From Dehalococcoidia bacterium (GTDB lineage Bacteria; Chloroflexota; Dehalococcoidia; Plut-88900): DNA of 64,000 bases. A program made the translations under genes and the position numbers. Under the pieces are notes generated by a model, which did no database searches, was not told where the DNA came from, and was given only the letters and a program-made list of their open reading frames with translations. The stretch spans positions 709,857 through 773,856 of the forward strand of contig CBDFLQ010000005.1 in the NCBI GenBank assembly GCA_965249275.1, given 5' to 3'. This document shows positions 341 through 25,724 of this stretch, piece after piece. Position 1 is the first letter of the stretch. Every line of letters begins with the position of its first letter.

Positions 341-1106
341 GGCAACATAATGTACTAGTTCGGCACGTCAGGGGCAGGCAAGGGCCTTTATTCGGTTGTG
401 GGTTGGATTTTGGTTCTTATTTGGGAGGGTTTGGCGATGGAAGACGCTGGCTGGACGCTGTCCCCGTTCATGTGCTTCGGGTGTTCCGACGCCCCGGGGC
501 GAGGGCGCCGGCCCGACTACGGCGGACTAAAGCCGCCTGCCGCTGCTGCGGCCTGTGGCCCTGCATACGCTGGACATGGGCAGGGACCTTCAGGGCCAGC
601 AGGTCCGAGCCCGACTCCGAGGGTTGGCTGCACCGCTATAGGGCGGCAAGGAGGCCCGTCCAGCGTCCGATGCCGGGCCTCTGCAGGCGTAGTGTGTTCA
701 AGTTTGCCGGTGCGACCCGGAGCGCGTAGACCACCGGCTCCCGGCTTCATTAAGCGGAGGGGGTACCGAGAGGGCCTCGGCGCCGGGCCTATCCGACCGC
801 TATTCCGCTCGAAGGAGCGGCTTCTCCGTAAGGAGCTTCACATGGAACTTAACGAACCAGGGCGTCTTTCCATCGCCTGGGGGTCAGGGAAGGGGCACGG
901 GACCTGATGGGATGAGGAGATGGCGGCGTTTGCTTGAGCCGCAGGCCGCGGGACGGCCATTGGGATGGGCTTGGACGTTGAGTCCTCGGATGGGTCGGGT
1001 GGGCTTCCCTGGGTTTTTGGTTCCTCCTTGAGATAGTTAGGTTAGTGTTCGAACGGTGGGGAGAATAGCACGAATGTTCATCTAAGGTCAAGGGGGTTGG
1101 TGTCAC
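341..1106 (-). ncRNA. putative large structured ncRNA element, copy 1 of a 3-member family
   Basis: Homologous in inverted orientation to 5990-6723 over promoter, leader and 3' tail. Closing stem 860-877 pairs with 433-447. Core has many hairpins and no conserved ORF. Confidence 0.6.
1062..1106 (-). promoter_or_regulatory. sigma70-type promoter with LexA-box-like site
   Basis: GTGACAccaaCCCCC-TTGACC-18nt-TATTCT, with GAACattcGTGC abutting the -10. Confidence 0.6.
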
Positions 1107-1173
1107 TCCTATTGAGGAAGGCGACCGGCCGGTCGTACCTACGGAAGTGGGGTGAGGTTGTATAATTGTCTGT

Positions 1174-2505
1174 ATGGCGGCGTTTAGGTGGGTAAGGCTG
1201 TTTCTCGGGGTGGCGATGTTGGTTGCAGGGCTGACGTTGCTGCTTAGTCCCGCCCTCGCCCAAAATTCGGAAGAGCAAGTCTACGTACTCACCTACGACG
1301 GAGATATAGGCCCAAACGCGGAGCGGTATTTTTCTCGCGGCATCGAGATGGCGGAGGTTGATGGGGCGGCGTTGGTCGTCATCAAGCTGGACACGCCGGG
1401 GGGGTCGCTTTCCTCCACTGAGAAGATTGTGGAGAGGCTGCTCGGGGCGGAGGTGCCCGTGGCGGTGTACGTCTATCCACCTGGCGCCTTTGCGGCCTCG
1501 GCGGGGACGTTTGTCACGGCGGCGGCTAACTTTGCGGTGATGGCTGAGGGCACGTCCATCGGGGCGGCTTCGCCGGTCGCCGCGGACGGAGAAGACCTGC
1601 CCGATACACTATCCGAAAAGGCCATCAACATAACCGTAGCTATGGCCGAGGGCATCGCAGAGAAACGAGGCCGCGACAAGGAAGCCCTGACCAAGACGAT
1701 CACGGAGTCGGAGGCGTACACGGCGTCAGTGGCGGTGGAAGTCGGGTTAGTAGATTTCGTGGCTGTGAACATACAAGACTTGCTTGAACAGCTGGACGGA
1801 AGGGAGACGGAGACGGCGTTAGGAACGGTTACGATGCGGACCGCGGGGCTGGTGGAGCGTGAGGTCGATAGGAACCTCGCTGAGAAGTTCTTCTCGTTCG
1901 TCGCAAATCCGAACGTTATAGGTCTACTCCTGACGTTTGGCTCAATAGGCCTCTTTGTGGAGCTTCTGAACCCGGGGCTGATCGTTCCCGGGGTCGTTGG
2001 GGCGCTGGCGTTAATCGTAGGGCTGGTGGCTCTTGGGGCGCTCCCGTTCAACTGGGCGGGTGTGGTGCTGCTGGGCCTGGCAGCCATACTGATCTTCCTG
2101 GAGATACAGGTTCCGGGGATAGGGTTCCTGGGGGTGGGGGGAGTGATCGCGTTCGTGCTGGGGGCGCTGCTGCTATTCTCGGTTGGGGAGCCGGACTGGC
2201 CGGGGGCCCCGGTGCTCAGGATCAGTTTCTGGCTCGTGGCCATACTCTCCGGGATGATGGCGGTATTTGCCCTGGTGATCGTAGGGGCGGTGGTAAGGAC
2301 GCGAAAGCTGAAATATGCCTCGAGTGTGGAGCTACTTATCGGGCAGACGGGACAAGTGCTCTCGGAGTTGAACCCCGTGGGGAACGTGCAGCTGAAAAGC
2401 GAGACGTGGAGCGCGGTGTCGTCGGGGGAGGGGTCAATAGGGGTGGGTGATAAGGTGGAAGTGGTCGAAGTCGACGGTCTGACTATCAAAGTCCGCAAGG
2501 CGTGA
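1174..2505 (+). CDS. nfeD: NfeD family membrane-bound ClpP-class serine protease
   Basis: LDTPGG and AASAG motifs, IGAASPV, TM region and C-terminal OB-like domain; upstream of an SPFH gene. Confidence 0.92.
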   Translation: MAAFRWVRLFLGVAMLVAGLTLLLSPALAQNSEEQVYVLTYDGDIGPNAERYFSRGIEMAEVDGAALVVIKLDTPGGSLSSTEKIVERLLGAEVPVAVYVYPPGAFAASAGTFVTAAANFAVMAEGTSIGAASPVAADGEDLPDTLSEKAINITVAMAEGIAEKRGRDKEALTKTITESEAYTASVAVEVGLVDFVAVNIQDLLEQLDGRETETALGTVTMRTAGLVEREVDRNLAEKFFSFVANPNVIGLLLTFGSIGLFVELLNPGLIVPGVVGALALIVGLVALGALPFNWAGVVLLGLAAILIFLEIQVPGIGFLGVGGVIAFVLGALLLFSVGEPDWPGAPVLRISFWLVAILSGMMAVFALVIVGAVVRTRKLKYASSVELLIGQTGQVLSELNPVGNVQLKSETWSAVSSGEGSIGVGDKVEVVEVDGLTIKVRKA

Positions 2506-2523
2506 ATTAGAAAGGAGCCTTAA

Positions 2524-3402
2524 ATGGCGACACCGGTATTGTTCCCAGTAATCATCGTAAAGCAGTATGAAAGGATGGTCCCCTTCAGGCTGGGGAAGTT
2601 CTACGGGTTGAAGGGCGCGGGTCTGCGGCTCCTGATCCCGTTTATAGACAGCTTCCAGAAGGTCGATCTTCGAGAAGACGTAATCGACGTGGCGAGGCAG
2701 ACCAACATAACCAAGGACAACGCCCCGATAGGCATCGACTTCTTGATCTACTACAAGGTAGTGGACCATGAGGCAGAGAAGTCGGTCATCGAGGTCCAGG
2801 ACTTCCGCGCCGCGATTGTAGGTATGGCCACGACAACCCTTAGGGCCGTAATTGGTGACATCCCCCTGGATGACGTCCTCGCCAAAAGAGAGGAGATCAA
2901 CATGGTCCTCCGGGTCAAGCTGGATGAAGTCACCAGCCGCTGGGGCGTGAAGGTGACGGCTGTCGAGATCCGGGAGATCGACCCGCCCACCGAGATCCAG
3001 CACGCCATGAACAGGCAGATGGCCGCCGAGCGGGAACGCCGAGCCGTAGTCACCGAGGCGGACGGCCAGAAAGAGGCCAACATCACAGTCGCAGAGGGAC
3101 AGAAGCAGGCAGCGATCCTCAATGCCGAGGGCCAGAGGCAGTCAGAGATACTGAAGGCTGAGGGCAATAGGCAAGCGGCGATTCTCAACGCCGAGGGATT
3201 CAGCAATGCGCTGGACCAGATATACAAGGTAGCCCAGGGGGTCGATGCGAAGACGATGAGCCTCCAATACTTCGAGACGTTGAAGGAAATTGGGGCCAGC
3301 CCCTCCACCAAGTTCATCTTCCCGATGGAGTTCACCAACGTTCTGAAGCCCTTCATGAACCTGGCCGCCAGCGCCGATGAGGATGCGGCCAACGGGAGGT
3401 AG
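2524..3402 (+). CDS. SPFH/stomatin (band 7) domain protein
   Basis: ITKDN, TTLRAVIG, WGVKVTAVEIREI and QMAAERERRA; canonical nfeD-SPFH pair. Confidence 0.93.
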   Translation: MATPVLFPVIIVKQYERMVPFRLGKFYGLKGAGLRLLIPFIDSFQKVDLREDVIDVARQTNITKDNAPIGIDFLIYYKVVDHEAEKSVIEVQDFRAAIVGMATTTLRAVIGDIPLDDVLAKREEINMVLRVKLDEVTSRWGVKVTAVEIREIDPPTEIQHAMNRQMAAERERRAVVTEADGQKEANITVAEGQKQAAILNAEGQRQSEILKAEGNRQAAILNAEGFSNALDQIYKVAQGVDAKTMSLQYFETLKEIGASPSTKFIFPMEFTNVLKPFMNLAASADEDAANGR

Positions 3403-3510
3403 GAACGCGGCTGGGGAGTAGACCTATTATGTGGTGGGAAAGGGCTGCGCTCTTTCCCACCACCGTTTTGATGGGTGGGTGATATACTCGCCTCCCTGCT
3501 TCAAGCGCAT

Positions 3511-4674
3511 ATGGCTAAGTCCAACGACAACTCAACATCCGTCCGCGGGCGTAATGTCTCAGTCGCATACCGTCGGATAGTGGTGAAATTGGGCAGCAAC
3601 CTGCTTGCGGGGCCCGACCGAGGCCTCGACCTGGGGTGTATGGCCTCGCTAGTTGGGCAGATAGCGACTATCAGGCGGGAAGGGATGGAGGTGGTGCTGG
3701 TGACGTCGGGGGCGATGGCGTCCGGGAGGGAGATTCTGGGCCGGGTGCCGGAGCACAGGGGTGTGCCGCTGAAGCAGGTGCTGGCGTCGGTGGGGCAGGG
3801 AAGGTTGATGCAGGCGTACGACAGGCTGTTCGGGGAGCACGGGATAACCGTTGCGCAGGCCCTGGTGTCGAGGGGGGACCTGTCGGATAGGCTCGGGTAC
3901 CTGAATGTGCGGAACACTCTCAACACTTTGCTGGAGCTCGGGGTGCAGCCAATCGTTAACGAGAACGATGTTGTTGCCGTCGAGGAGATCAAGGGGACGC
4001 GGTTCGGGGACAACGATAATCTATCGGCGATGGTGGCGAACCTTGTGGACGCGGACCTCCTGATGATCCTTTCGGACGTGGCGGGGTTGTACACATCGGA
4101 CCCGAGCCTCGACCCGGAAGCGAAGCTCATCCCCAGGGTGGAGGCGATCGATGAATCGATTACGTCTCTGGCCCAAGGTACGAAGAGCGCGGAGGCAGTC
4201 GGTGGGATGGTAACGAAGCTGCAGGCGGCGAGCCTGGCTACGACATCAGGGGTGGACGTGGTGATTGCCAAGGGTCGGATGGAGGACGTGATACCCCGCC
4301 TGGCCCGTGGAGAGGGATTGGGCACTTTCTTCCCCAGCCAGACGACGAAGATGGAGAGCCGGAAGCGGTGGATGCTGAGCGGGCTGAACTCCCGGGGCTC
4401 GGTGCGGGTGGATGGGGGTGCGGTGTCGGCGCTAAAGAGGGGAGGGAAGAGCCTGCTGCCCGCGGGTGTGGTGGAGGTGTCGGGGAGCTTTGAGCGGGGA
4501 GACGTGCTGATCATTCTCGACGGGGACAGCAACCGGATCGCATGTGGGCTGGCCAACTATGGGGCGGGGGATGCGAAGGCGATAGCGGGACGGCAGTCGG
4601 GGGAGATCTTAGAAGTTCTCGGGTACGAGTACGGGGCGGAGCTGGTGCATAGGGATAACTTGGTGTTGCTGTAG
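3511..4674 (+). CDS. proB: glutamate 5-kinase
   Basis: VVKLGSN, VTSGA, PIVNENDVV, FGDNDNLSA, GGMVTKL and a C-terminal PUA domain ending HRDNLVLL. Confidence 0.96.
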   Translation: MAKSNDNSTSVRGRNVSVAYRRIVVKLGSNLLAGPDRGLDLGCMASLVGQIATIRREGMEVVLVTSGAMASGREILGRVPEHRGVPLKQVLASVGQGRLMQAYDRLFGEHGITVAQALVSRGDLSDRLGYLNVRNTLNTLLELGVQPIVNENDVVAVEEIKGTRFGDNDNLSAMVANLVDADLLMILSDVAGLYTSDPSLDPEAKLIPRVEAIDESITSLAQGTKSAEAVGGMVTKLQAASLATTSGVDVVIAKGRMEDVIPRLARGEGLGTFFPSQTTKMESRKRWMLSGLNSRGSVRVDGGAVSALKRGGKSLLPAGVVEVSGSFERGDVLIILDGDSNRIACGLANYGAGDAKAIAGRQSGEILEVLGYEYGAELVHRDNLVLL

Positions 4675-4773
4675 GGGAGGGGGGGTTTGTACTGGATCTG
4701 GCTCTAGGTTGATTTTGAAACAGCGATATTTACAACTTCCGTCGCATATTTGTCTTAATGCGTATACCAGCTA

Positions 4774-5628
4774 ATGACTAAGAAGCGTTTGTCTACCAAA
4801 ATCAGACAAATGGCCGAACTACAATACGCCGAGATTGTCGGACGCCTTTATGCCAGTGAACATCTGGAGTCGGAAATAGAGAACGTTTCCGACCCTCGCG
4901 TATTGTATGGATGGAATCTGTTGACTCAAGAAGTACTGATCCGGCTTGCGGAGGCGTCCCTAAAGTTGCTCTACATGGTTTACTTCGACCACGAACCGCC
5001 GCGTGGTCGCGATGGTCACGATCTTGCGGTCCTTTGGGGAAAATTCCCTAAAGAAGTACAGGACGAAGTAGAAGCCAAGCGTCAGAATTATTCCGGCGGC
5101 GATCGGCGAATCAGTTTCCCTGACTATAATTTTGATGACTTCCAGGACGTCAGGTATTTGTACGAGCGCCTATTGGGAGGTCAGGCCAAGTCGTTTGAGA
5201 CGCGACGATTGTATCTAGATTCGTTCGCCGCTAGAGACGTGGCGGAAGACTGGTTAGGCAACATAACGACCTGGCCTTGGGCGGGATTGGTAGACCTTGC
5301 CTTAGCTGGCTACGAGATCATTCCAACTGCGGAGGATAAGTTAGATGTTTGGGTCAAGAATCCGATTAAGCCTATGGATTGGGCAGGCGCGATTATAGAA
5401 CTCAAAGATGGCCGATATATCTGGACGCTTTTCTGCGGCTTCACTAAAGGCAACGGTGAGAGAAAATCTTACAAAATTAAAAGCCCGTGCTACTCATGGC
5501 CGCTCGAAGATCTATTGGCCAATACTGTCGAGGAGTGCGCGGAGAAGATTCACCGGGCCTATCAGGAACCCTGTCCTGCATTGCTCAAGGCCATAGAGGA
5601 AGCGACTGAAATGAAGAGTATCAACTAA
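4774..5628 (+). CDS. hypothetical protein with HEPN-like N-terminal domain, inserted between proB and proA
   Basis: 284-aa ORF, visibly more AT-rich than its neighbours. The AEASLKLL...GHDLAVLW...DVRY pattern resembles HEPN. Confidence 0.6.
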   Translation: MTKKRLSTKIRQMAELQYAEIVGRLYASEHLESEIENVSDPRVLYGWNLLTQEVLIRLAEASLKLLYMVYFDHEPPRGRDGHDLAVLWGKFPKEVQDEVEAKRQNYSGGDRRISFPDYNFDDFQDVRYLYERLLGGQAKSFETRRLYLDSFAARDVAEDWLGNITTWPWAGLVDLALAGYEIIPTAEDKLDVWVKNPIKPMDWAGAIIELKDGRYIWTLFCGFTKGNGERKSYKIKSPCYSWPLEDLLANTVEECAEKIHRAYQEPCPALLKAIEEATEMKSIN

Positions 5629-5779
5629 AGCGCGAGTGCACGGCATAAGAGTTGCGTAGTCAATTGCACACAATTATTAGGTAAATAGTGGTAGGCAAAG
5701 GCTACCCGGACGGGCTCGTGGTATATTATTCAGGCTAAGATGCACCTACCTCAAGTGTGCTGAAATTGAAGCAGAAAAA

Positions 5780-5844
5780 ATGACTACCAGCGTTAAACAG
5801 GACCTTAGGGCGCAGGCTTTGGCGGCTCGGGGGTCGGGGCGGAG
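5780..5844 (+). repeat. duplicated 5' fragment of proA (about 65 bp, direct repeat of 6757-6822)
   Basis: Encodes MTTSVKQDLRAQALAARGSGR versus MTTSVKQDLRAQALAARGAGR, then diverges. Confidence 0.9.
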
Positions 5845-5989
5845 GTGGGTTGGGAGGGTGCGAAGAGGTGGTTTGAAGTGGAGTTGCTTAGGTCTGGCTA
5901 GTCGTCAGCTATTCCCACCCGGCATAGGAGACGCCTTCGGAGAGAGATTTACGTTGGGTCGGGCCGTTTGATCCCGTTCACATAGAGGG

Positions 5990-6723
5990 GTGACATCACC
6001 CCCTTGACATTATAAGTACTTATGTTCTATATTCTAACCAGGTCTAGACCACCTAACCCAACTACCTTAAGGAGGTACACAACACCCAGGGAAGCCCACC
6101 CGACCCACCAGAGGACTCAACGTCCAAGCCCATCCCAACGGCCCTCGCGCAGGCCTGCGGCACAAGCAAACGCCGCCATCTCCTCATCCCCACGGGTCCC
6201 GTGCCCCCTTCCCTGACCCCCAGGCGATGGAAAGACGCCCTGGCCTTCACGCTCCCACCCTGCTCCCTGTACGGGAGATTGCATCAAGGGTGACCCGAGC
6301 ATACACTCCGCGGACCGCCTAACCCCCATGGAGAACCGTCTCGAACGTCGGGCCGCATTGCTGGAGATTGGCGCTACGGCGCGGGGGTGCCCGGAGGATA
6401 TTCGCTCCTGTCCTTTTCCGGCGAACTTGGACACTATTAGTTAGGCTGTGGGGCCTCGCACAGCTGGATCCCTGGCCCCGACGTGCCCCCACGGGCATAC
6501 AGCCCCCATAAGGAGCCTCTGCCGGACGTCTGGCCCGAGAATTGTCCGTGTATACCATCTAGCATCAGGGCATACTGGCTGCAAGTCCACGTACAAGCAG
6601 CTCTGCCAAATGGGCGTCTTCCATCGCCAACCTCCTCCCAACAGACAGAACGGAAACCAAAACCCCACAACTGAATAAAACCCGGTGTGTCACTAATCTA
6701 CCGAACGAGTACACGTTCTTGCC
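5990..6723 (+). ncRNA. putative large structured ncRNA element, copy 2
   Basis: TTGACA-18-TATATT promoter with GTACttatGTTC. Leader nearly identical to copy 1. Stem 6223-6240 pairs with 6612-6628. Central motif at 6418-6433. Confidence 0.6.
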
Positions 6724-6756
6724 CCTCGGCGGTCAAGTCCTGATAATAGGAGAGCA

Positions 6757-8034
6757 ATGACTACGAGTGTTAAACAAGACCTTAGGGCGCAGGCTTTGGC
6801 GGCTCGGGGGGCGGGGCGGGAGCTGGGTCGGGCGAACAGTGCAATTAAGGACCGGGCCCTGAGGAACATAGCGCGAGCCCTTCTCGAAAAGCAGGAGGAT
6901 ATTGTCGCGGCCAACCGTCGGGACTGCGAGACGGGTGTTGCAACGGGGTTGTCGGACGCTCTGTTGGACCGGCTCCTGCTTACGCCCGAGCGGATTCAAG
7001 CTCTCGCTGCGGATGTTGAGGGCATTGCCGTGCTGCCCGACCCTGTAGGCGAGACGTTCGATATGCGGACGCTTCCGAATGGGCTGCAGGTCGGGAAGAG
7101 GCGTGTGCCATTGGGCCTGATCGGGGCCATATATGAAAGCCGCCCGAATGTGACCATAGACATATCTTGCCTATGTCTCAAGTCGGGCAACGCGGTGCTG
7201 CTGAGGGGCGGCAAGGAGGCCATCAGGTCGAACCTTATCCTCTCCTCAATTGTAAGGGAGAGCCTGGTCGAGGCTGGGGGGCCGGGCGAGGCTGTTCAGT
7301 TCGTCGAGTCGACGGACCGGTCCCTGGTCGGTGAGATGCTCGGCATGAAGGGGTTGATCGACCTGTTAGTGCCCCGGGGCAGTGAGCAGTTCATACGCTA
7401 CGTAGGAGAGAACGCTTCGATGCCGGTGGTAGAGGGTGGGGTGGGGGTGTGCCACACGTATGTGGACAAGTCGGCCAATCTGGACAGTGCGGTAGCCATA
7501 GCCTACAATGCCAAGGTACAACGCCCCTCCACCTGCAACGCCCTGGACACCCTCATCGTGCACTCCGCCGTCGCCCACGAATACTTACCTCGAATCGCCC
7601 GCGCCTGGAGTGAGAAGGGCGTAGAGATACGGTGCGACGAAAGGGCCCTCGACCTGCTACAGAGCGTGCCCGAGGCCCGGTCAGTCCCCGCAACCGAGTC
7701 CGACTGGGGTACGGAGTTTCTTGCCCTGGTCGCCTCGGTCAAAGTTGTAGACGGGCTGGACGAGGCCCTGAACCACGTAGAGACCTATGGGTCGGGGCAT
7801 TCAGAGGCGATAATTACCGAGGACTACTCGGCGGCGCAGAGGTTCCTGGATGAGGTGGACGCGGCGGCCGTATTTGTAAATGCCAGCACCCGCTTCACTG
7901 ACGGCGGCCAGTTTGGCCTCGGGGCAGAGGTGGGGATCAGCACGCAGAAGCTGCACGCTCGGGGCCCGATGGGGCTCCGGGAGATGACTTCCTACAAGTG
8001 GATAATTCTGGGCCGCGGTCACGTCCGGCCCTAG
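6757..8034 (+). CDS. proA: gamma-glutamyl phosphate reductase (glutamate-5-semialdehyde dehydrogenase)
   Basis: IYESRPNVT, CLKSGNAVLLRGGKEA, CNALDT and NASTRFTDGGQFGLGAEVGISTQKLHARGPMGL. Confidence 0.97.
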   Translation: MTTSVKQDLRAQALAARGAGRELGRANSAIKDRALRNIARALLEKQEDIVAANRRDCETGVATGLSDALLDRLLLTPERIQALAADVEGIAVLPDPVGETFDMRTLPNGLQVGKRRVPLGLIGAIYESRPNVTIDISCLCLKSGNAVLLRGGKEAIRSNLILSSIVRESLVEAGGPGEAVQFVESTDRSLVGEMLGMKGLIDLLVPRGSEQFIRYVGENASMPVVEGGVGVCHTYVDKSANLDSAVAIAYNAKVQRPSTCNALDTLIVHSAVAHEYLPRIARAWSEKGVEIRCDERALDLLQSVPEARSVPATESDWGTEFLALVASVKVVDGLDEALNHVETYGSGHSEAIITEDYSAAQRFLDEVDAAAVFVNASTRFTDGGQFGLGAEVGISTQKLHARGPMGLREMTSYKWIILGRGHVRP

Positions 8035-8055
8035 ACCAGAGAGGAAACACCGCAC

Positions 8056-8370
8056 ATGGCCCCCTACCGCTTCGAAAGAGAATGCCGCACCCCGCACTCA
8101 GAGACCTACACGATCATCGATGATGAGAGCTCGGCGGGACGGGTCGATCTGCACTTTGGCGCCAGCGTGGTACACGCTACGCTCTGCGTACTTGAGAACA
8201 TAACCCAGGAGGGCGTCCAGGAGCTCATCGATACAATCGACGAGGAACTAGTTATGACGGCGGACGCGTCTCGGGGCGACTTCATAGTCGCGGTGTACCA
8301 GGGCCGGGAGATCGGTGTGTTCAGCGACGAGGACTTCGACGAGGAAGAGGGCGGCGGCAGCGCTCAATAG
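8056..8370 (+). CDS. conserved hypothetical acidic protein
   Basis: 104-aa ORF directly after proA with GAGG SD and typical codon usage. Confidence 0.7.
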   Translation: MAPYRFERECRTPHSETYTIIDDESSAGRVDLHFGASVVHATLCVLENITQEGVQELIDTIDEELVMTADASRGDFIVAVYQGREIGVFSDEDFDEEEGGGSAQ

Positions 8371-9497: not shown

Positions 9498-9732
9498 TAG
9501 GAAATTATAGCGTCGCGGGGAGGGGGGGTACAATTCGAGGGAAAGGGATGGGTGCTACGGCCACTCTACGCTAATATTTCGATCCTCTAAAGGCGGACTT
9601 TCAGCAGCACGGGCGGCCCCTCCCCAGATTCCGAGGCTCCGCGAGGAATGACAGTTGTACAAAGGGCTCAGCAAGGGAGAGGGGATGTAGGAATCGACAG
9701 GGGGGAGAGGGGAGATTAAGATTGACGGCGAT

Positions 9733-14758: not shown

Positions 14759-14804
14759 ATTCTTACCTTTCAGCTAATGCTAACCGATACATTCGGAAGG
14801 TCTG

Positions 14805-16321: not shown

Positions 16322-16374
16322 ACTTAAAATTCTCCTCCAAAGTGATAGTAGCAGTGTCAAGAAGATGCACGCAC

Positions 16375-16460
16375 CCTCTCCCAGGCGGCTTAATTGCCGC
16401 TATGGATCGTCCATAATCCACCTCCAGGATAGGAGCGAACACCCAAGGACAGTACATGCT
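16375..16460 (-). promoter_or_regulatory. conserved 5' leader with GGAGG, uORF MDDP* (16400-16414) and anti-SD hairpin
   Basis: Aligns with the two other SBP leaders. Confidence 0.55.
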
Positions 16461-16712
16461 AGCTAAGTAGCGAATCAGGCCGGGAAAGGTGGTGAGAAGG
16501 GGGAAGAGGGTGGTGATTCTGGGCGTCTGTTCAGGACTCGGCAGCGGGATCCGGGGTCACCTTTCTGCAATGGCCAATGACGCTAATTATGGTTTTGGAT
16601 TATATGGAGCAGTATGGGGATAGTCAAATGGGGAGAGGGTGAGTACAAGGCCTGCTCATAGGCGGGAGGGCAGGCACAAGACCTGCCCGTACGGGGGAGG
16701 GGGCTGCCTTGG

Positions 16713-17879: not shown

Positions 17880-18028
17880 GGGGGTGTTCCTCCCTCGTAT
17901 TGGGGTTGAGGCGCGGCTTTATGCTATCGGTGATGGGGGTGTGGGGTCAAACGGGGGGAGGGATGGATTCACGCCTCGGCGCATCTTCGACCGGCTCGGG
18001 GGCCGGGATGACACCATAAGAGAAGTTG

Positions 18029-18397
18029 CTAGTTGGTGGTGAGGTCGACTTTGATGAGGGGGGCGCCGGTGACGCGGGCATCCAGCTGGTCCAGGGTATC
18101 CTGTTTGGAGCAGATGGCATGAAGGATTCTGCGCTTTTCTGCGGGGTCGGTGATGGGGGTGGCGAGGGCGGGGAGGTCGGCGACGGCAGTCTCTTTGAGG
18201 TGAAAGGTCAGACGGGGGTCGACGAGGATATTGGCGTACCAGCCTCGGGTGCCGGGGAGGCCGGTAATGTAGAGGATGCCGTCCAGGTTGTGGAACCAGA
18301 TCTCGACCCGGTGGGCGTCGCCGCTCTTTCTGCCGGTGGTTGTGATATCGATGATTAGGTCTTTTCCCAAGGCCTGTTGGACATTGGGGTCGAGCAT
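18029..18397 (-). CDS. deazaflavin (F420)-dependent nitroreductase family protein
   Basis: ITTTGRKSG..R.EIWF and WYANIL..P; SD AGGAG. Confidence 0.85.
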   Translation of the reverse strand: MLDPNVQQALGKDLIIDITTTGRKSGDAHRVEIWFHNLDGILYITGLPGTRGWYANILVDPRLTFHLKETAVADLPALATPITDPAEKRRILHAICSKQDTLDQLDARVTGAPLIKVDLTTN

Positions 18398-18455
18398 GAC
18401 GTCGGTTCTCCTATGCGGGGGCAACGGTCCAGCCGATTCGGTTTGAAGTTGGAGC

Positions 18456-18830
18456 TTATCCGGCTTCGAGGCGTACTCTTATCAAAGGGGATTCAGCGAC
18501 TCGGGCTTCGAGAAGCTCCGGCTCACCCAAGTTATCGCATATCCGCTCCAAGACTCTGTGTCTTTCCGCGGCGTCGGTTATCGGAGTAACGAGGGCAGGG
18601 AGGTCGGCTTTTGTTGTCCCTTTGAGATGGAAGGTCAATCGAGGGTCGTTGAGGATATTGGCATACCAAGCCCGGGTCCCGGGCAAGAGCAGGCCGGCGA
18701 TGTAGAGTGAGCCATCCAGGTTATGAAACCAGATCTCGACCCGGCGGGGTGAGCCGCTCTTCTTGCCTGTGGTGGTGATATCGATGATGAGGTCTTTTTC
18801 CAAGGCCTCTTGGACTTTGGGGTCGAGCAT
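18456..18830 (-). CDS. deazaflavin (F420)-dependent nitroreductase family protein (tandem paralog)
   Basis: Near-identical N-terminus and RBS to 18029-18397. Confidence 0.85.
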   Translation of the reverse strand: MLDPKVQEALEKDLIIDITTTGKKSGSPRRVEIWFHNLDGSLYIAGLLLPGTRAWYANILNDPRLTFHLKGTTKADLPALVTPITDAAERHRVLERICDNLGEPELLEARVAESPLIRVRLEAG

Positions 18831-18963
18831 GACGTCGGTTCTCCTAGTGCGGCTTGAAAGAAATCTAACAGGCCCCGTATCCGTTGTCACCTGCCCACGG
18901 GACGGGTGCGGTTGACACCGCGAGAATCGGACACTTAACATCGTGAGCGGAGGGGAGATTAAG

Positions 18964-19389
18964 ATGTCTGTTTTTCCGTCCGTCGAGTGGTTTGAGGAGG
19001 TCAGGGAGGTTGTGAACCCGAGCAAGGAGTTCCGGGCCCTGGGCAACTGTGACGCGAACATGGGGGTGAAGGTAGGGGACAGGGCCTTCTCCCTGAAGTT
19101 CGAGGCGTTTTCCTGCGAGGAAGTGTCCGAGATTGGTGCCGAGGGGCTGGCGGACCTGGACTTCTACCTGGAGATGTCGTCGAAGGACTGGCGGGAGTTG
19201 CTCAGCAATATCGAGTCCAACGGCAAGGCAGATGGGGAGCATAGCTTGAACACTCTTGACCTGACGCGGGAGGGTGGGATTTTGCGGGTCAAGGATGACT
19301 TTCTGCGGCAATCTTTTCTTCGATATCACCTTTCGTTCCAAGCCTATTTCGACGCTTCTGCCCAAGTGGAGACAGTCTTCGCCTCTTAG
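18964..19389 (+). CDS. hypothetical protein, SCP2-like fold suspected
   Basis: MSVFPSVEWF N-terminus typical of SCP2-like proteins; strong SD. Confidence 0.6.
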   Translation: MSVFPSVEWFEEVREVVNPSKEFRALGNCDANMGVKVGDRAFSLKFEAFSCEEVSEIGAEGLADLDFYLEMSSKDWRELLSNIESNGKADGEHSLNTLDLTREGGILRVKDDFLRQSFLRYHLSFQAYFDASAQVETVFAS

Positions 19390-19398
19390 GTCGACCTT

Positions 19399-19683
19399 AT
19401 GCCACTGTACGAATACAAGTGCCTCGGGTGCCAGCATGTGACCAGCCGTTATTGGCGCAACTTTTCACCGCCTGAAACGATCGCTTGCGAGGGGTGTGGG
19501 GACGCTGGAGCGGAGCGGCGGTTCTCGACCTTCGCCTTTCACAAGTCTGCGGAGACGAAGATGGCGGAACTTGACCCGAAGTACGACAAGATGGTCGACG
19601 AGGCGTTCAAAAACTCGCCTGCCACGTCGGACCCCCAGCATTACTTGGACAAGATGGCATCATTCGACGGCGTACCGGACTAG
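19399..19683 (+). CDS. FmdB family zinc-ribbon protein
   Basis: MPLYEYKCxxC...CxxCG. Confidence 0.9.
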   Translation: MPLYEYKCLGCQHVTSRYWRNFSPPETIACEGCGDAGAERRFSTFAFHKSAETKMAELDPKYDKMVDEAFKNSPATSDPQHYLDKMASFDGVPD

Positions 19684-19713
19684 GGCATCTCCCCACTGCG
19701 CTAAACTAGGCCG

Positions 19714-20916
19714 ATGAGCATGGAAGTCGGGGTGTGGGTGGGAGCCGGTTTATCAGTTTCCGCATTACTTGCCTGGGGCTGGCTTACGCTTTTCAGAGGC
19801 CGGTTCTGGGCGACGGACCAACGGCTAGAAGTTCTACAGGCCAAGGAAGGTGGTTCCTGGCCGGGGGTCGTGGCGGTGATCCCGGCCCGGAATGAGTCCG
19901 AGGTCATTAGTCAAACAATTCCAACAGTCCTTGCCCAACGCTACCCGGGTCCTGTGTCGGTCTATCTAGTTGACGACCGGAGTTCGGATGGAACTGCTGA
20001 TATCGCTAAGGCCGCCGCCAGAGAAGCCTACAAAGGGTTTTCCTTCAAAGTGGTGATGGGCAAGGAAAGACCCGAGGGGTGGGCGGGGAAGGTGTGGGCA
20101 CTGCAACAGGGCGTCGAGGCGGCAAAGACAGTCGACCATGAATATTTCTGGTTCACCGATGCGGATATAGCCCACAGACCGAATGTGTTGGCGTCTCTCG
20201 TGGCGCGGGCGGAGGAAGAGGGGTTGGATATGGTCTCGGTGATGGCGAAGCTGCATGTGTCTACCTTCTGGGACAGGCTTCTCATACCAGCCTTTGTGTT
20301 CTTCTTCGGGAAGCTATATCCATTTCACTGGGTGAACGATCACGAGAAGAGTATGGCAGCCGCGGCGGGAGGATGTGTGCTGGTGAGGAAAGAACGGCTG
20401 GTGGAGGGTGGGGGTTTTGAATCGATGAGGGACGCGATAATCGACGACTGCACTCTTGCTCGGTTGGTACGCGGTCCTGAGGGTCGGGGGAGATTGTGGT
20501 TGGGGATGAGCCAGGAGGTGCAAAGCGTCCGGCCCTATGACGGGCTCAGAGGCATTTGGGACATGGTGGCGAGGACGGCTTACGTACAGCTACGTCACTC
20601 GCCGATCCTGTTGGCGGGTACGATTTTGGGGATGGTGTGGCTGTATCTCGGGCCTCCGGCGGCAATGGGCGCAGGGATAGGGTTAGCTGCCGTTGGGGTA
20701 TGGGACACGCCGACGTGGGTGTTGTTGGTCTCGGGAGCGGTGGGGTGGGGGCTAATGTCGGCGATATACACGCCGATGTTGAAGTGGTACGGGCTGAACC
20801 GTTGTTGCGGACTACTGCTGCCTACGGCCGGCCTTCTGTACACGCTGATGACCGTGGACTCGGGGCGGAGGTACTGGATGAGAAGGGGCGGGGGGTGGAA
20901 GGGGCGGACCTACTAA
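19714..20916 (+). CDS. hpnB: GT2 glycosyltransferase, hopene-associated HpnB-like
   Basis: IPARNE, VDDRSSDGT, GWAGKVWA, TDADI, AAAAGGC, IIDDC, MVARTAY.QL and GGWKGRTY. Confidence 0.75.
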   Translation: MSMEVGVWVGAGLSVSALLAWGWLTLFRGRFWATDQRLEVLQAKEGGSWPGVVAVIPARNESEVISQTIPTVLAQRYPGPVSVYLVDDRSSDGTADIAKAAAREAYKGFSFKVVMGKERPEGWAGKVWALQQGVEAAKTVDHEYFWFTDADIAHRPNVLASLVARAEEEGLDMVSVMAKLHVSTFWDRLLIPAFVFFFGKLYPFHWVNDHEKSMAAAAGGCVLVRKERLVEGGGFESMRDAIIDDCTLARLVRGPEGRGRLWLGMSQEVQSVRPYDGLRGIWDMVARTAYVQLRHSPILLAGTILGMVWLYLGPPAAMGAGIGLAAVGVWDTPTWVLLVSGAVGWGLMSAIYTPMLKWYGLNRCCGLLLPTAGLLYTLMTVDSGRRYWMRRGGGWKGRTY

Positions 20917-20928
20917 GCCAAGTGCCGG

Positions 20929-22170
20929 TCAGACCAGCTCTCGGGGGCGGCGGTCCCATTCGGCGGGGAGGAAGAAGGCAGCGATGGTCAGTGTTACTCC
21001 GGCCATACCCACGATGGTCAGTGCAAGGCGCCGGTCGTCGGAGAGTTCGTGAAGTACCCCCGCCGCTATGGGGCCGCTCATAGCTCCGACCATCAAAGCC
21101 GTCCTTAAGAATCCCATCGCCACGGCGATCTCCCGGGTCCGGATGCCCTTCAATTGGAAGGGTATGGTGAATATCACCGGGAAGAAAGTGAAGCTGAGGC
21201 CGTGTAGCAGTGATAAGACCACCAAGACCGGGAAAGACCCGGAATAGAGTAGGGCTACGGTAGTCACAGAAATCAACGCTCCGCCCACACGCAGAGCCGT
21301 TCTACGCTTACCAGTCTTGTTGACCATAAGGTTGATGCCCAGCCCGGAGGGACCGGCAACCATGCCGCCGATGGCCCAGATCAGGGCCGAAGTCTGGATA
21401 TCAATGCCGTATGTGTCTTTCATGTGGCTGGGCCAGAAGGTGGCAAAGGAGGAAAAGGTCATCTCGACTCCCACCAATCCGATGGCCAAGAGCCACAGCT
21501 CCTTGTAGCGAAGGGCGCTCCTGATGGATACAGGCTCCTTACTTTCCTTTTCGGTCTCGGCGTCGGGCATGGGACGCTCTCTACCTACGACGAACCAGAC
21601 CACGGCTAAAGCAATGGTTGCATAGCCGAGGACCTGCATAGTCTTGCGCCAATCGTCGTCCAGAGCCTTCAGGATGACCGGTATGAGGATAAATAACGCC
21701 GCGCCGATGCCCCAGAGCAGCTCAATAGAGGCGTTGGCAATCAGTATCTGCCGGGGCCGTATCCACATCCTGAGGAGCAGGGTCCGGGCGGGTTCTCTTA
21801 GGGTTATGGAGAGGCCGTATAGCAATCTCGCCAGCAGGACGAAGCCGTAGACGGGGGCCCAAGCCTGAAAGAAGATGACGCAGACTGCTCCAACAATGGA
21901 GACCAGGGTGAGCAGTTTGGGGGGGAAGCGGGAAAGGTAGAGCCCGAAAGGGATGGACAAAATGAGGACCGTCAGCTGGGGCGCTGCTCCGAGGAGGCCT
22001 TCCCGGACGGGGGTGAGATTGAGCTCCTCACGCATGGATGGCAGGAAAAGGCCCAGGGTCTCCATGACCAGATACCCCCACATGTGGATCGCCATCCAGG
22101 TGAGGATAACTACCCATCCGTAAATGGGGCTTTGGAGCGAATTGGCAATCCGCGGGACTGCTTGTGCCAT
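20929..22170 (-). CDS. MFS transporter
   Basis: About 12 hydrophobic segments, 413 aa; paralog of 28530-29792. Confidence 0.85.
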   Translation of the reverse strand: MAQAVPRIANSLQSPIYGWVVILTWMAIHMWGYLVMETLGLFLPSMREELNLTPVREGLLGAAPQLTVLILSIPFGLYLSRFPPKLLTLVSIVGAVCVIFFQAWAPVYGFVLLARLLYGLSITLREPARTLLLRMWIRPRQILIANASIELLWGIGAALFILIPVILKALDDDWRKTMQVLGYATIALAVVWFVVGRERPMPDAETEKESKEPVSIRSALRYKELWLLAIGLVGVEMTFSSFATFWPSHMKDTYGIDIQTSALIWAIGGMVAGPSGLGINLMVNKTGKRRTALRVGGALISVTTVALLYSGSFPVLVVLSLLHGLSFTFFPVIFTIPFQLKGIRTREIAVAMGFLRTALMVGAMSGPIAAGVLHELSDDRRLALTIVGMAGVTLTIAAFFLPAEWDRRPRELV

Positions 22171-22408
22171 GATGCGGGCAATCCTAACACCGGCGGGGTG
22201 GGAGTGGGGCCTTAGCCTGAGAGAGTGGACTGCAATATCAATTATTGCAGAGGATTCTTTTGTACTGCCTGGCCGGTTAGGGCATGGGCCGCGATAGTAA
22301 TGAGAGAGTCACTGGGTGATACAAATGCCCTTAGGCACAGAATGCCGGTGCCTCAACGGGCGTTCACGCGTGGGGTGGAAGGGACCTTGAACCGTAGCGT
22401 TAGTGGAG

Positions 22409-22771
22409 TTAACTTTCCGATGTATCGTCGGTAAGCGGGGTAACCTCACCGATGGGGGCAGTTGGGTATCCAAGTTCCAGGGCTAGCCGGTAGCGGCCTT
22501 CCAAGCCAACCCAAACGTGAGCCGGGATTTCCAAAACCGCCTCCAATTCCACGGCTGTCCTTGGCGTCAGAGCCCTCTTGCCCAGGGCGATTTCGTTGAT
22601 AACGTGGAGGGGGCGTTTCATTTCGGCGGCCAGACGCCTCTGGCTCATTCCTCGGGCCTCCAGCTCATCCTTAAGCATCAGCCCAGGTGGAATCGCGATT
22701 TTAGGCATTACCTGCGAAATGTCCGAGGAAGCCGGAATTTTGGGCACTCCTGTTTTGGCTTCAGTCGCCAT
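22409..22771 (-). CDS. higA: HigA family antitoxin (HTH)
   Basis: IPPG..LKDELEARGMSQ..LA and INEI..GKR.LT...A..LE. Confidence 0.88.
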   Translation of the reverse strand: MATEAKTGVPKIPASSDISQVMPKIAIPPGLMLKDELEARGMSQRRLAAEMKRPLHVINEIALGKRALTPRTAVELEAVLEIPAHVWVGLEGRYRLALELGYPTAPIGEVTPLTDDTSES

Positions 22772-23057
22772 AGTGTGCACTCACCTCTCTAACAACTACC
22801 GATTGGTCACCAACCGGCTCGATTATCAATCGCCAGCGTCCCTGGAGGGTCATGGCCCATAAACCGCTCATGTTTCCCTTGAGGGGATGCACCCGAAGCG
22901 CTCGGGATTTCATCAGGGCCTGCAAACTGTCTGCTACAACCAATAGCTCAATCCTGTTCACATACCTCAACCCAATGCTCGGCCCCCATTCACGAATTGC
23001 ATCCGATGGATTGTAAAAGCGCCGTTCAAGTCTCTTGTTGGCAAAATCCACTTTCAC
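22761..23057 (-). CDS. higB: HigB/RelE-like toxin (plasmid-maintenance killer type)
   Basis: V.F.NK.L, HPLKGN..G.WAM.L...WRLI; lies upstream of and overlaps higA. Confidence 0.85.
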   Translation of the reverse strand: MKVDFANKRLERRFYNPSDAIREWGPSIGLRYVNRIELLVVADSLQALMKSRALRVHPLKGNMSGLWAMTLQGRWRLIIEPVGDQSVVVREVSAHYGD

Positions 23058-23067
23058 TACTGGAATA

Positions 23068-23090
23068 ATGTACCACCATCGGTGGTACAT
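23068..23090. promoter_or_regulatory. palindromic operator of higBA
   Basis: atgtaccacc-atc-ggtggtacat perfect inverted repeat just upstream of the toxin start. Confidence 0.7.
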
Positions 23091-23178
23091 AGACAAGGTG
23101 AAGTTAGTGGCGCGGGGGAGTCGCTCTTCTCCCTTAGCAGAAGCGAGGCCTTGCAGGTCGAAGTCGGCCCAGACGGGT

Positions 23179-24465
23179 CTAGCGGTGGTTACGCGCCCAC
23201 TTACGGACCATTCCGGGATCCGGTTCCTGTTTGAGGCAGCCTCGGGCGCCGCCTAGGCGCTGGAAGTCTCGGGAGCGCTTGGCCAGGTTTCGGCGGAAGA
23301 GGATCAGGCCCCTGTCGAGGAGGCCGAGCTTCTGGGGGCGCTCCAGGTTGATGTGCTCGGTCTTGAAGACGATGAGGTCTTCTTTTTCGTTGATTGCGAC
23401 AACCCGGGCAGGCTTGTTCCAGAGGTAGTACCAGACGTCCATCCAGAACTTTCCGAGGAAGGTCTTGGGAGTCTTGCAGACGGTGAAAGTCCAGACCCGG
23501 GTGTTTTGCTCGTCGACGGGGACGCCCCATCTCAGATGCACCAGGCTGCCGATGCAAACCCTGATCTTTGTTGGCAGCTGGAGGTTGTGGTTGTAGGTGG
23601 CCCAGGCCTTTTCTCCTGTGGCGGTGGCGATCATGCCTGCGTTGGGTGTCTTAGGTGCGGAGAGCTTACGCCACCAGGTCTTTCGGGGCCATTTGCCAAG
23701 GCCGGGGTATTCTGCCTGGCCGAACTTGGCCTCGGCGGTCTTGACCCAGATATTGTCCTCGCCTTCGGAGACGATCTCGGTGCCGCCGGTAGAGACGGAC
23801 TTGGGCCGCCAGAAAGGTAAGCGGTAATCGACGAATCGCCAGAAGTTCAAGCCCCGGTGGAGGTAGAACTCGTGGTAGTCGATGCCCTGGTTCATGGGCT
23901 CGGTCCAGTTGGTTTCCCACGTCTTGACCCTGGTGTATTTACGTCCGGTGAGGGTCGAGTCGGAGAACTCGTAAGGGAGGTCCTCTTCGAAGGGGACAGG
24001 GTCGGTCTCTCCCATCCAGACCAGGACTATGCCCTGCCACTCGGCGGTGGGGTAGACGCGGGTGCGCATCTTGTTGACCAGGGGGGACTCGGTGCTCTCG
24101 ATGAGGCCGGCGACGCAGTTACCCGTCTCGTCGAAAGTGTAACCGTGGTAGGGACAGGTGACGGTCCCTTCGAACTCGCAGAAGCCGCGGGAGAGTCGGG
24201 CGCCGCGGTGGGGGCACCATTCGTTGAGGGCAACTATTTTGCCGTTCTTGCCCCGGAACAGGACGAGTTCATCTCCGAGCATCTTGATGTTCTTGGGCTT
24301 GCGTCCCACTTCCTTGGTCCAGACGCAGGGGTACCAGTACTCACGGAACCCGACCTTGGGAACGTAGTCAAAGGGGCCTATTTGCGTTGCGCCGTAGGAC
24401 TCGTCCTGGACATCGGGGACGTGGACGGCTGGAATCTGTCGTTCTCTTCGTGTAGTTACTACCAT
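23179..24465 (-). CDS. Rieske non-heme iron oxygenase, alpha subunit
   Basis: CPHRG...CPYHG Rieske motif; NW...D.H...H catalytic region. Confidence 0.9.
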   Translation of the reverse strand: MVVTTRRERQIPAVHVPDVQDESYGATQIGPFDYVPKVGFREYWYPCVWTKEVGRKPKNIKMLGDELVLFRGKNGKIVALNEWCPHRGARLSRGFCEFEGTVTCPYHGYTFDETGNCVAGLIESTESPLVNKMRTRVYPTAEWQGIVLVWMGETDPVPFEEDLPYEFSDSTLTGRKYTRVKTWETNWTEPMNQGIDYHEFYLHRGLNFWRFVDYRLPFWRPKSVSTGGTEIVSEGEDNIWVKTAEAKFGQAEYPGLGKWPRKTWWRKLSAPKTPNAGMIATATGEKAWATYNHNLQLPTKIRVCIGSLVHLRWGVPVDEQNTRVWTFTVCKTPKTFLGKFWMDVWYYLWNKPARVVAINEKEDLIVFKTEHINLERPQKLGLLDRGLILFRRNLAKRSRDFQRLGGARGCLKQEPDPGMVRKWARNHR

Positions 24466-24539
24466 AGTGCCTAACCCCTCGCTAAAGATCTGCATCCGGG
24501 GACATGGGTGTGAGGATGATTCTACCAGACGTTGGGCCG

Positions 24540-25724
24540 GGCAACAAAAGGGGGTTGGGGTTCAATTGTGGGGGAAGGGTGTGTGGGTGTGGGCTAGTGG
24601 GTGGTTCCTTTCTTGGGTCGGGGGAGGGGTGTGGACGCCCCGTTCGGGGCATCCACACCCTGGGCGACTGGCCGGTCGTCCCTACTGGGGAAGTGGAGAA
24701 GGGGGAGGGGAGGGGGCAAGGGGCGAGCCCCACCCCAGGGCGACCAGCCGAGCCTGTCTCAAAAGTCGCCCCATGCCCCTCTTCCCGCTCTTATACGACT
24801 TGGATTCGTGCCTACGGCACCCGTCGCATTGGTCAAGAATATCCAATCGGGCTGTGTCTAACGGACTTATGAGACAGGCTCAGCCGGTCGCCCCTACGGG
24901 GGAGGGGGCAGATAGAGGGGGAAGGGGAGGGGATGGAAGGTCCCGGACGGTTGCGCAAGAAGACGGCGACGCCTGTACCGATGGGTGTTGTCCGCGACAG
25001 CGGATGTTCCACATCGACGCCGGCTCTGCGACAGCCCCGTGCTTCTGAGAGGACGTGGAAGAGACGCGAGGGGATCTCGGTGTGGGGCAGTCTCGACCAC
25101 CAGAAGTGCCCGACCACCCTAAGGGATGGGAGCGTGGACCCGTGACCGGCGTTCGTAGACCGGAGTTCTCCGATGGTGACGACGGTGGAATCCCTAAATG
25201 GTGCGTTTGTTTTAAGTCGGAGGTTGTCCGACTGTTCGGACTCGCCAGCAAGGTCTAGGCCGGGGGAGTCCGGAGGTGGCGCTATGGCCCAAGGAGGAGA
25301 CATGACGCTGTGCTCCGGGGCGTCGCCTGAGGAGGCGAAACGGATGCGCCGGGTGAGTGGGGCGCGCACTTGGCAGTGGCCCTTGGAAAGGGCAAGCCAG
25401 GTTTTGTCCGGGGATCTTCCATAGCCGGTCGCGTGGACCGGGCGGGACAGTGATTGATCGCTGCGGAGGCGGAGGCGATGGGCCTTGGGGCAGCGCTTGT
25501 AGTGGGGGATGTGTGGTGGGACGTTGGATGGAAAGGGACAGGGGAGGAGGCGCGTGCCTGTGGCCGGGCGGTGGCATACCGCTCGGTTACGACGGGGCCT
25601 ATGGAGGCTTGTGCGACTCATGGGACTCCTATGTCCTTTCCTTATTAGGGCCGACGTTGGAAGAGTCGGGCCTGGGGGGCAATATAGTACAGATGTTTTG
25701 ATTTAGTCAAGGGGTTCGTGTCAC
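24540..25724 (-). ncRNA. putative large structured ncRNA element, diverged copy 3 (3' tail interrupted by REPs and a MITE)
   Basis: GTGACAcgaaCCCC-TTGACT-18-TATATT promoter with AAACatctGTAC. CAACGTCC leader motif. Stem 25406-25422 pairs with 24933-24948. Central motif at 25233-25248 and CCCACAA tail motif. Confidence 0.5.
24750..24881. mobile_element. 132-bp MITE inserted in a REP palindrome
   Basis: 18-bp TIRs gagcctgtctcaaaagtc / gacttatgagacaggctc (1 mismatch); 4-bp target duplication AGCC at 24746-24749 and 24882-24885. Confidence 0.85.

Follow-up and report, generated by a model that had tools for sequence, protein, structure and literature searches.

Modular non-coding cassettes in a Dehalococcoidia genome: a probable family of transposon-associated, LexA-controlled RNA genes with selected cores

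Three intergenic loci in a 64,000-nucleotide (nt) stretch of a Dehalococcoidia genome (contig CBDFLQ010000005.1, positions 709,857 to 773,856) share a promoter, a leader, a long-range stem and a tail, yet the cores enclosed by their stems do not align with one another. What kind of element keeps its scaffold and changes its middle? The whole stretch is referred to here as the window, and unprefixed coordinates are positions within it; the loci are called copy 1 (minus strand), copy 2 (plus) and copy 3 (minus). A sequence-only reading had proposed either an undescribed class of large structured RNA or a non-autonomous, RNA-based mobile or guide-carrying element. The analysis leans, with some reserve, towards a family of non-coding, modular cassettes found throughout the genus, each a transcription unit with its own promoter, leader, stem-closed core and tail. 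Such a family is probably one of transposon-associated, LexA-controlled, large modular non-coding RNA (ncRNA) genes with selected cores.

The three loci were found to belong to a larger set. A blastn search with the leader of copy 2 returned 56 loci within this 2.9-Mb genome (87% complete; designated G000, with contigs labelled C1–C7 and loci labelled L plus a number), and all eight congeners were positive. An anchor combining the promoter with the palindrome identified 72 sites; eight were dropped as non-members and 64 were kept, 63 of them falling into seven core clusters and one being admitted by its leader. The cassette family in G000 comprises at least 64 copies, or approximately 1.7% of the genome, where the sequence-only reading had counted three and had staked its case on there being more. 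Cassettes measured approximately 0.7–0.9 kb, with a core of 350–500 nt, and were dispersed over the genome, not arrayed. Sequence depth in G000 was 54 for the leader and 13, 12, 10 and 6 for cores. The family was carried by 8/8 congeneric genomes searched; outside the genus, no part of the cassette was matched except the right-end module.

Comparison of all cores against all others produced clusters of 20, 12, 11, 10, 6, 2 and 2 copies, with a mean identity of 78–89% inside a type. The earlier view that the core cannot be aligned was therefore too broad, there being about seven discrete types; copies 1, 2 and 3 fail to align because each belongs to a different one (types 3, 4 and 0 respectively). 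Inside a single type, the core was the best-conserved part of the cassette, at 90–98% per 50-nt bin, above both promoter and leader. One motif, CCGGCRAACTTGRACAC, occurred at a similar position in core types 3 and 4, and weakly in type 2. Promoter variants and core types were found in various combinations, and one pair of homologous loci was especially informative. Contig C4 and C7:583783-592579 had 93% identical flanks and agreed in insertion site and 5-bp repeat, while the cassette on C4 contained a type-4 core and that on C7 a type-3 core, with breakpoints at the arms. A difference of core type at a homologous locus, with breakpoints so placed, shows that cores have been swapped between cassettes through recombination in the shared scaffold, and the idea of a constant scaffold with a swappable core is upheld by this pair. 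None of 634 core matches was in the opposite orientation, and no core match of 100 nt or more was found in G000 outside the scaffold; the only hits were in family members missed by the anchor and in a nested 133-bp MITE (miniature inverted-repeat transposable element). All 9145 bp of contig C4 form another version of the C7 region at 93% identity, which may stem from a large duplication or from a further strain in the bin.

Orthologous cassettes in G000 and two congeners (G002 and G005) provided five comparisons over four loci, all with type-4 cores. Identity across core and arms was 98.3, 96.6, 96.3, 91.2 and 93.9%, while third codon positions of the flanking open reading frames (ORFs) were 85.7, 89.6, 84.1, 86.6 and 86.0% identical in the same comparisons; the first pair of values belongs to copy 2 and its G002 orthologue, where the neighbouring gene is proA. 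Since type-4 cores had changed more slowly than the synonymous sites of their neighbours in 5/5 comparisons, they are under purifying selection.

The arms enclosing the core formed 19–23 bp in all 62 copies measured, with a mean of -36.5 kcal/mol. The outer 11 bp of this stem (GGCGAUGGAAG/CUUCCAUCGCC) was nearly invariant, while the inner part co-varied with core type. In copy 2, the 5' arm occupies 6223–6243 (+), its first 11 nt (GGCGATGGAAG) being near-invariant in all core types; it is followed by a type-4a core at 6244–6611 and the 3' arm at 6612–6628. Six copies of this core type were counted in G000, and 8/9 genus genomes yielded 30 loci. The stem of copy 1 (877–857 / 450–433; whole feature 433–877, minus strand) encloses a type-3 core, a type with 10 copies, and that of copy 3 (25426–25406 / 24948–24929; whole feature 24929–25426, minus strand) encloses a type-0 core behind a leader type of its own (13 copies). 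When folded, the sense strand of each of the three copies was better than every one of 100 shuffles; sense and antisense z-scores were -2.24 and -0.73 for copy 2, -3.99 and -2.27 for copy 1, and -3.31 and -3.27 for copy 3. To this extent, with sense z-scores from -2.2 to -4.0, the description of the core as highly structured is weakly supported; its standing under covariation is considered below.

The cassettes are also non-coding. Substitutions showed no 3-nt periodicity (permutation p = 0.15–0.56 inside cores), and few gap runs were divisible by three among the four biggest core types that could be aligned (4/30, 0/57, 8/37 and 7/54). No conserved ORF group was present in type-0 cores. These results agree with the prior observation that no ORF is conserved.

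Transcription of the cassette would begin from a promoter that is common to all three loci when aligned: GTGACA-N-CCCC-TTGAC, an 18-nt spacer and TAtatT. In copy 2 (6004–6033, +), the -35 TTGACA lies at 6004–6009 and the -10 TATATT at 6028–6033, with a box, GTACTTATGTTC, between them at 6016–6027. In copy 1 (1062–1106, -), the GTGACA is at 1106–1101, the -35 at 1091–1086, the box GAACATTCGTGC at 1079–1068 and the -10 at 1067–1062, and in copy 3 (25681–25724, -), the -35 is at 25710–25705, the box AAACATCTGTAC at 25698–25687 and the -10 at 25686–25681. A -35/-10 pair with a box one or two mismatches from GAAC-N4-GTTC was present in 53 of 54 leader loci (21 with one mismatch, 32 with two); against this, 226 of 5000 random 24-nt windows reached two mismatches or fewer. 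Besides the boxes of copies 1 and 2, variants included GTACACATGTAC. The lexA gene itself (C6:159597) has a perfect operator, GAACGCCCGTTC, just downstream of its -10, and recA has a two-mismatch box, GAACACATATCC, between -35 and -10, which is the same promoter position as in the cassettes. The LexA-like box expected in the promoter was thus present almost throughout, and we infer that the cassette promoter is LexA-repressed and DNA-damage-induced; SOS control of the cassettes is plausible on these motifs. Genome-wide, many host promoters in G000 read GTGACA-N5-CCCTTGCC, then a spacer rich in C and TATAAT; these may be further dispersed modules akin to the cassette's left end.

Downstream of the promoter, copies 1 and 2 both have AAGGAGG and a C-rich leader. 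In copy 2, the leader extends over 6042–6222 (+), is common to 54 copies and contains AAGGAGG at 6069–6075 without a start codon behind it. All three copies have the tail motif CCCACAAyyGAA; the C/A-rich tail of copy 2, with CCCACAACTGAA, was read from the sequence at 6629–6683 (+). Promoter, AAGGAGG, leader, long-range arms and tail motif were all confirmed where the sequence-only reading had placed them. A small module, GATGGAACATCCGCCTCTGGAGGAC, was observed in the tails of many copies (e.g., G000:C7:735399-735544) as 1–3 tandem repeats, and also in the leader of C7_805305-; its sequence is like that of the 5' arm, for which it could substitute in pairing with the 3' arm.

Assembled RNA contigs of four libraries from four studies (X15, X16, X17 and X20) were positioned on 5700–7400. 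Their cover begins in the leader at 6084 and takes in core and tail; none lay over 5700–6083. The X15 contig (419 nt, 13 differences) spans 6217–6629, that is, stem and core, and the X16 contig ends at 6632, after which come adapter letters; both ends adjoin the 3' arm. The X17 contig (698 nt) corresponds to a whole cassette with a different core, from leader through tail into the right end. There is a hint in these contigs that the transcript is processed at the stem.

A mechanism can be proposed on this basis. LexA would repress a near-consensus sigma-70-type promoter, and DNA damage would induce the cassette; the promoter would then drive the C-rich leader, the approximately 20-bp stem, a core of one of about seven types and the C/A-rich tail. 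RNase III-like cleavage at the long stem's base would free a stable core RNA of approximately 400 nt. This core RNA would be the selected product, and the invariant helix a shared handle for processing or protein binding. Our best guess is that the core RNA acts as a DNA-damage-induced protein-binding or regulatory RNA.

How one subfamily of the cassettes came to be dispersed is best answered by its ends. One promoter variant is bounded on its 5' side by TGATCCCGTTCACATAGAGGGGTGACATCACC, upstream of which the sequences are unique. The left end, TGATCCCGTTCACATAGAGGGGTGACAtCACC, is an inverted match of the right end, GGTGtGTCACTAATCTACCGAACGAGTACA (approximately 30 bp, TG...CA); in copy 2, the left terminal inverted repeat (TIR), TGATCCCGTTCACATAGAGGGGTGACATCACC, lies at 5969–6000 (+) and the right one (IRR), GGTGTGTCACTAATCTACCGAACGAGTACA, at 6684–6713 (+). 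The left end occurred 18 times in G000 and in 5/9 genus genomes. Both IS481-type ends were found in 15 of 64 copies, copy 2 among them. An exact 5/5 direct repeat lay outside both ends in 10 of these 15, two of the ten being the homologous loci on C4 and C7; the chance of such a repeat is about 0.001 per site. The repeat flanking copy 2 is decayed or shifted (CCGTT / CGTTC). The right end was distributed more widely, in 11/151 genomes and 8/111 genera of the class, where it was multi-copy and often lay approximately 115 nt from the end of a contig, as is usual for repeats. In three genomes of other genera (G011, G019 and G029), the same 25–28 nt stood immediately after the C-terminus of rve transposases that are truncated or frameshifted, although the left end of these IS481-like elements was not found. 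The best NCBIfam model was NF033577 (IS481), against which the G011 remnant scored 113.4 bits and IS-A, an insertion sequence (IS) of G000, 188.2 bits, both below the cut-off of 224. At L131 (G011:C1:141000-144700), the IS481-like remnant adjoins an ORF like an SOS-response-associated peptidase and the C-terminal part of an ORF like an error-prone polymerase, judged by eye from translations.

Within G000, 22 rve matches were obtained and three IS481-like ISs were extracted. The ends of IS-A (TGT...ACA) are related to the cassette ends (17/27 by eye), not identical to them, and IS-A makes 5-bp duplications. IS-A is 1056 bp long and has approximately 12 copies in G000 (e.g., C7:999572-1000627), always placed in the GGAAT/ATTCC that belongs to a small repeat (GTCATTCC...GGAATC), with a 5-bp duplication; it appears to be a second sequence-targeted IS in this genome. 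Cores had no similarity to the IS481-like elements of G000 and matched only other family members, and the copy-2 transcript, tested for complementarity to the three IS481-like ISs at their 5' ends, scored z = -0.56 to +0.56. TIRs, 5-bp duplications and IS481-like ends together argue that the two-ended subfamily (15 copies, including copy 2) is a non-autonomous IS481-type transposon cassette, that is, a MITE or mobile insertion cassette (MIC) by its sequence signature, which a transposase of the IS481 family presumably moves in trans. DNA-level mobility of this one subfamily can be considered well supported. The earlier suggestion of a non-autonomous, mobile element therefore holds for at least one subfamily; that its mobility was RNA-based does not, the signature being that of a DNA transposon, and genes for RVT_1 (PF00078; the reverse transcriptase of a retron), the TnpB TNB domain (PF07282; omega RNA) and IS110 DEDD (PF01548; bridge RNA) were not found in the 87%-complete genome. 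A gene for Ro/Rsr (TROVE, PF05731), the protein that goes with Y RNA, was not found in it either.

The right end also has a fixed relationship to the host. Five nt separate it from a -35-like hexamer, and a -10 comes 16–18 nt further on, both in G000 and in other genera. TTG occurred at +6 after the right end in 8/16 cases in G000, against a background of 1.2%, and TAnnnT was seen by eye 16–18 nt after the hexamer at 12/16 right ends. After copy 2, the 5-bp spacer or decayed target duplication CGTTC is followed by the proA -35, TTGCCC (together 6714–6724, +), with the proA ATG at 6757; other targets included a tRNA gene (C6_81012+) and fabF (L041). Insertion of the two-ended subfamily at the promoter edge, exactly 5 bp upstream of the host -35 and in most cases directed towards the gene behind it, is well supported by this geometry. 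Around the whole family, the downstream ORF was co-oriented in 47/64 copies and the upstream ORF divergent in 42/64, by crude ORF calls; the genes downstream of the window copies are proA, an amidotransferase-like ORF and a 438-aa ORF. At L023, no clean empty site was present in G001–G005, the locus being occupied or rearranged in all five, and cassette loci would seem to be old because L023 is occupied in these congeners. The region upstream of proA was not syntenic in four close metagenome-assembled genomes (MAGs), and hence offered no empty site.

Several features of the insertion sites were observed in passing. The first ~75 nt of proA (6757–6830) are duplicated upstream of copy 2 as a decayed copy (5780–5854, +) with a 79–91% match to the proA start of relatives, the 91% being to that of a close MAG. 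A solo left end at G000:C6:928812-928830 (-) supplies the promoter region of groES/groEL up to and including the -35, and is followed by an inverted repeat like CIRCE (controlling inverted repeat of chaperone expression), TTAGCACTC-N9-GAGTGCTAA. In copy 1, the tail and a degenerate right end (...CCGAACTAGTACA) were read from the sequence at 351–432 (-), ending at 351, and a host promoter follows directly (-35 at 345–340, -10 at 322–317, -). The 3' ends first assigned to copies 1 and 2 (341 and 6723) overlap host promoters; the elements end at 351 and 6713. The length first given for copy 3 was inflated by a separate, unrelated 133-bp MITE inserted in its tail (24749–24881, -), which has inverted ends of approximately 25 bp (GGGGCGACCGGCTGAGCCTGTCTCA...) and 100% identical copies at C5:488336-488468 and C7:193088-193219. 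The remaining tail of copy 3, likewise a sequence reading, occupies 24548–24748 (-), with CCCACAATTGAA at 24572–24561 and no IS481-type right end.

Searches for a known family gave little. Across the whole window, no Rfam family matched any of the three copies at the gathering threshold, and Rfam 15 at E<=5 (positions 1–26000) and at E<=1 (each copy alone) had no family above threshold on them, so the match to a described RNA that would have told against novelty did not appear. The sole Rfam match on the copies was sub-threshold, to Flavi_ISFV_repeat_Rb (xrRNA clan; a repeat of the 3' untranslated region of insect-specific flaviviruses), at 23–24 bits against a gathering threshold of 43. It fell at 6182–6237 (+) and 863–917 (-), at the end of the leader just 5' of the 5' arm and around the hairpin CACGGGTCCCGTG; the two matches are homologous to each other, hence not independent. 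No tRNA or tmRNA gene was found at the three loci. Elsewhere in the window, 26939–27133 (-) matched Ms_IGR-5, an actinobacterial small RNA family, above its gathering threshold (58.9 bits against 45). Copies 1, 2 and 3 had no match among phages and copy 2 none among plasmids (blastn, 'distant' mode), and a 24-mer of the leader was found in no viral contig and in one metagenome contig. At the level of titles and abstract openings, the literature held no account of such an element.

A number of results weigh against a family of functional, SOS-controlled RNAs. Evidence of selection is limited to a single core type, type 4. The leader, although common to 54 copies, evolves roughly at the synonymous rate to judge from the same five comparisons (92.3, 90.0, 91.6, 85.8 and 83.2% identity), that is, about neutrally. 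The arms are an almost perfect inverted repeat at the DNA level, with 1288 Watson-Crick pairs and 44 G.U; the antisense arm duplex is at least as stable, the asymmetry of G.U and A.C lends the sense strand no support, and copy 3 folds equally well on either strand. Covariation, the test proposed for the structured core, was examined in 29 type-4 cores from 8 genomes (L143, one of the 30 loci, was dropped because its arms were not found), and divided. The consensus had 75 pairs, with a covariation term of only -2.03 in -81.7 kcal/mol, and double changes affected 6 pairs against a shuffled mean of 6.1, with 384 of 500 shuffles reaching 6. Cell-based measures were reached by 0/500 shuffles, and slid controls paired at 37–46% against 97.6% for the consensus, but most pairs are invariant and the structure was drawn from the same alignment. 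Thus the fold of the core stood against shuffled sequence, while its covariation was no better than event-based controls. None of the 53 cassette promoters has a perfect Cheo box. The RNA contigs are unstranded, and a multi-copy repeat carried over as DNA could look like a transcript. As for mobility, 49/64 copies lack one or both IS481-type ends, so that the spread of the majority is left without explanation by these ends; 0/8 copies with the right end and another left end had a target duplication at the expected place, and an intact partner transposase with cassette ends was not found in G000.

Many of these points would be expected if the cassettes were purely selfish MITEs, an explanation we consider unlikely on the whole. 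The promoter, LexA box and AAGGAGG would then be relics of an SOS-controlled transposase gene, the interior would be functionless and the inverted repeat would matter as DNA, for instance as a site of recombination or as nested ends. In keeping with this are the IS481-type ends, TIRs and target duplications, as well as the Shine-Dalgarno-like site with no ORF behind it, near-perfect arms lacking strand asymmetry, weak covariation, a roughly neutral leader and the solo left end with promoter upstream of groES/groEL. Neutral junk, however, would not hold its cores 5–13 points above third codon positions in 5/5 orthologous comparisons, and the loci are occupied across species, not polymorphic. 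Nor do the cores resemble anything but other family members, the IS481-like elements of G000 included, and the missing end pair in 49/64 copies is as awkward for a simple MITE.

Rather less probable is a unit acting in cis, whereby a mobile cassette would add a DNA-damage-inducible upstream promoter to the host gene and the stem and core would process, insulate or attenuate read-through. The placement of the right end exactly 5 nt from -35-like hexamers suits such a role, and so do the prevailing orientations of the neighbours, a tail in which no terminator-like end is visible and the continuation of the X17 contig from leader through tail into the right end. Yet 17/64 copies are not co-oriented (again by crude ORF calls), the genes downstream in the window are unrelated housekeeping genes, and no RNA contig joined the element to proA in 3/4 libraries, the proA contig of X17 being separate. 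The existence of about seven conserved core types, and the selection on them, would also be left unaccounted for.

It is very improbable that the cores are guides or captured sequences of a system that is guided or templated by RNA (a retron, bridge RNA, omega RNA or CRISPR-like one), despite a variable middle in a constant scaffold, ends joined by a stem in the manner of retron a1/a2 and an association with a mobile element. There are just seven or so core types, each conserved, and the idea of guide-carrying or captured cargo failed also because cores had no match of 100 nt or more beyond the family and none in phages (all three copies) or plasmids (copy 2); the four protein genes sought in G000 were not found in the 87%-complete genome and Rfam offered no match. 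Least credible of all are decayed or unusual protein-coding genes, since the features that could suggest them, namely a 262-aa ATG ORF in copy 3 (24833–25621), the long stop-free frames common within cores and a 38-aa ORF common to three type-4a copies, stand against absent codon periodicity, few indels divisible by three and a type 0 with no conserved ORF group, and the 38-aa ORF was rejected as a gene when its frame proved to be broken in 4b by compensating 1-nt indels around a GCGC-UACG-GCGC hairpin.

The modular non-coding cassette consequently remains our preferred reading. A bolder version, which we put forward tentatively, is that these are an undescribed class of DNA-damage-inducible large ncRNAs on IS481-type ends, in which a constant scaffold presents constrained cores of approximately 400 nt that are shuffled by recombination, while the cassettes seek out host promoters at their upstream edge. 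Should the core RNAs have a function, a small genome spends approximately 1.7% of its length on dozens of modular RNA genes under stress promoters, with no Rfam match among them. The insertion geometry amounts to unusually precise, promoter-targeted transposition by an IS481-type element in several genera, and insertion at the -35 edge could rewire many genes to one signal. There is a problem for annotation also: 64 'intergenic' loci, and their equivalents in congeners, would otherwise pass as unique regulatory regions.

Among known systems, the integron cassette offers an analogy only, in its exchangeable middle; members of the present family are dispersed, not arrayed. As far as titles and abstract openings describe them, istR/tisB, symR/symE and agrB/dinQ likewise place a non-coding transcript beneath an SOS box. 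Those loci, on the same partial evidence, are single-copy, shorter than 150 nt and antisense to an adjacent toxin gene, whereas here there are 64 copies with transcripts of approximately 650 nt, no partner ORF and a transposon context. GOLLD, ROOL, OLE and HEARO/omega RNA are 400–700 nt long, have no coding capacity and often occur with mobile DNA. The cassettes resemble them in all three respects; they differ in having no match in Rfam 15, weak covariation and several unalignable cores in one scaffold. The Correia elements of Neisseria are dispersed repeats of approximately 100–150 bp, situated near genes and bearing promoter elements, and the stem of their transcript, which derives from the TIRs, is cut by RNase III. 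Both families are therefore promoter-bearing repeats near genes with a long stem if transcribed, but the stem described here is internal and encloses a conserved core of approximately 400 nt, and the promoter has a LexA-like box. The closest relatives in form are MITEs and MICs, with which the cassettes share TIRs of approximately 30 bp with TG...CA, 5-bp duplications, multiple copies and the lack of a transposase, and IS481 derivatives, through a right end identical to that beside IS481-like transposase remnants in other genera. Unlike in MITEs, a full end pair is wanting in 49/64 members, insertion is fixed 5 bp upstream of a -35, and in place of a deleted transposase gene the interior has a promoter-driven, constrained non-coding unit with interchangeable cores.

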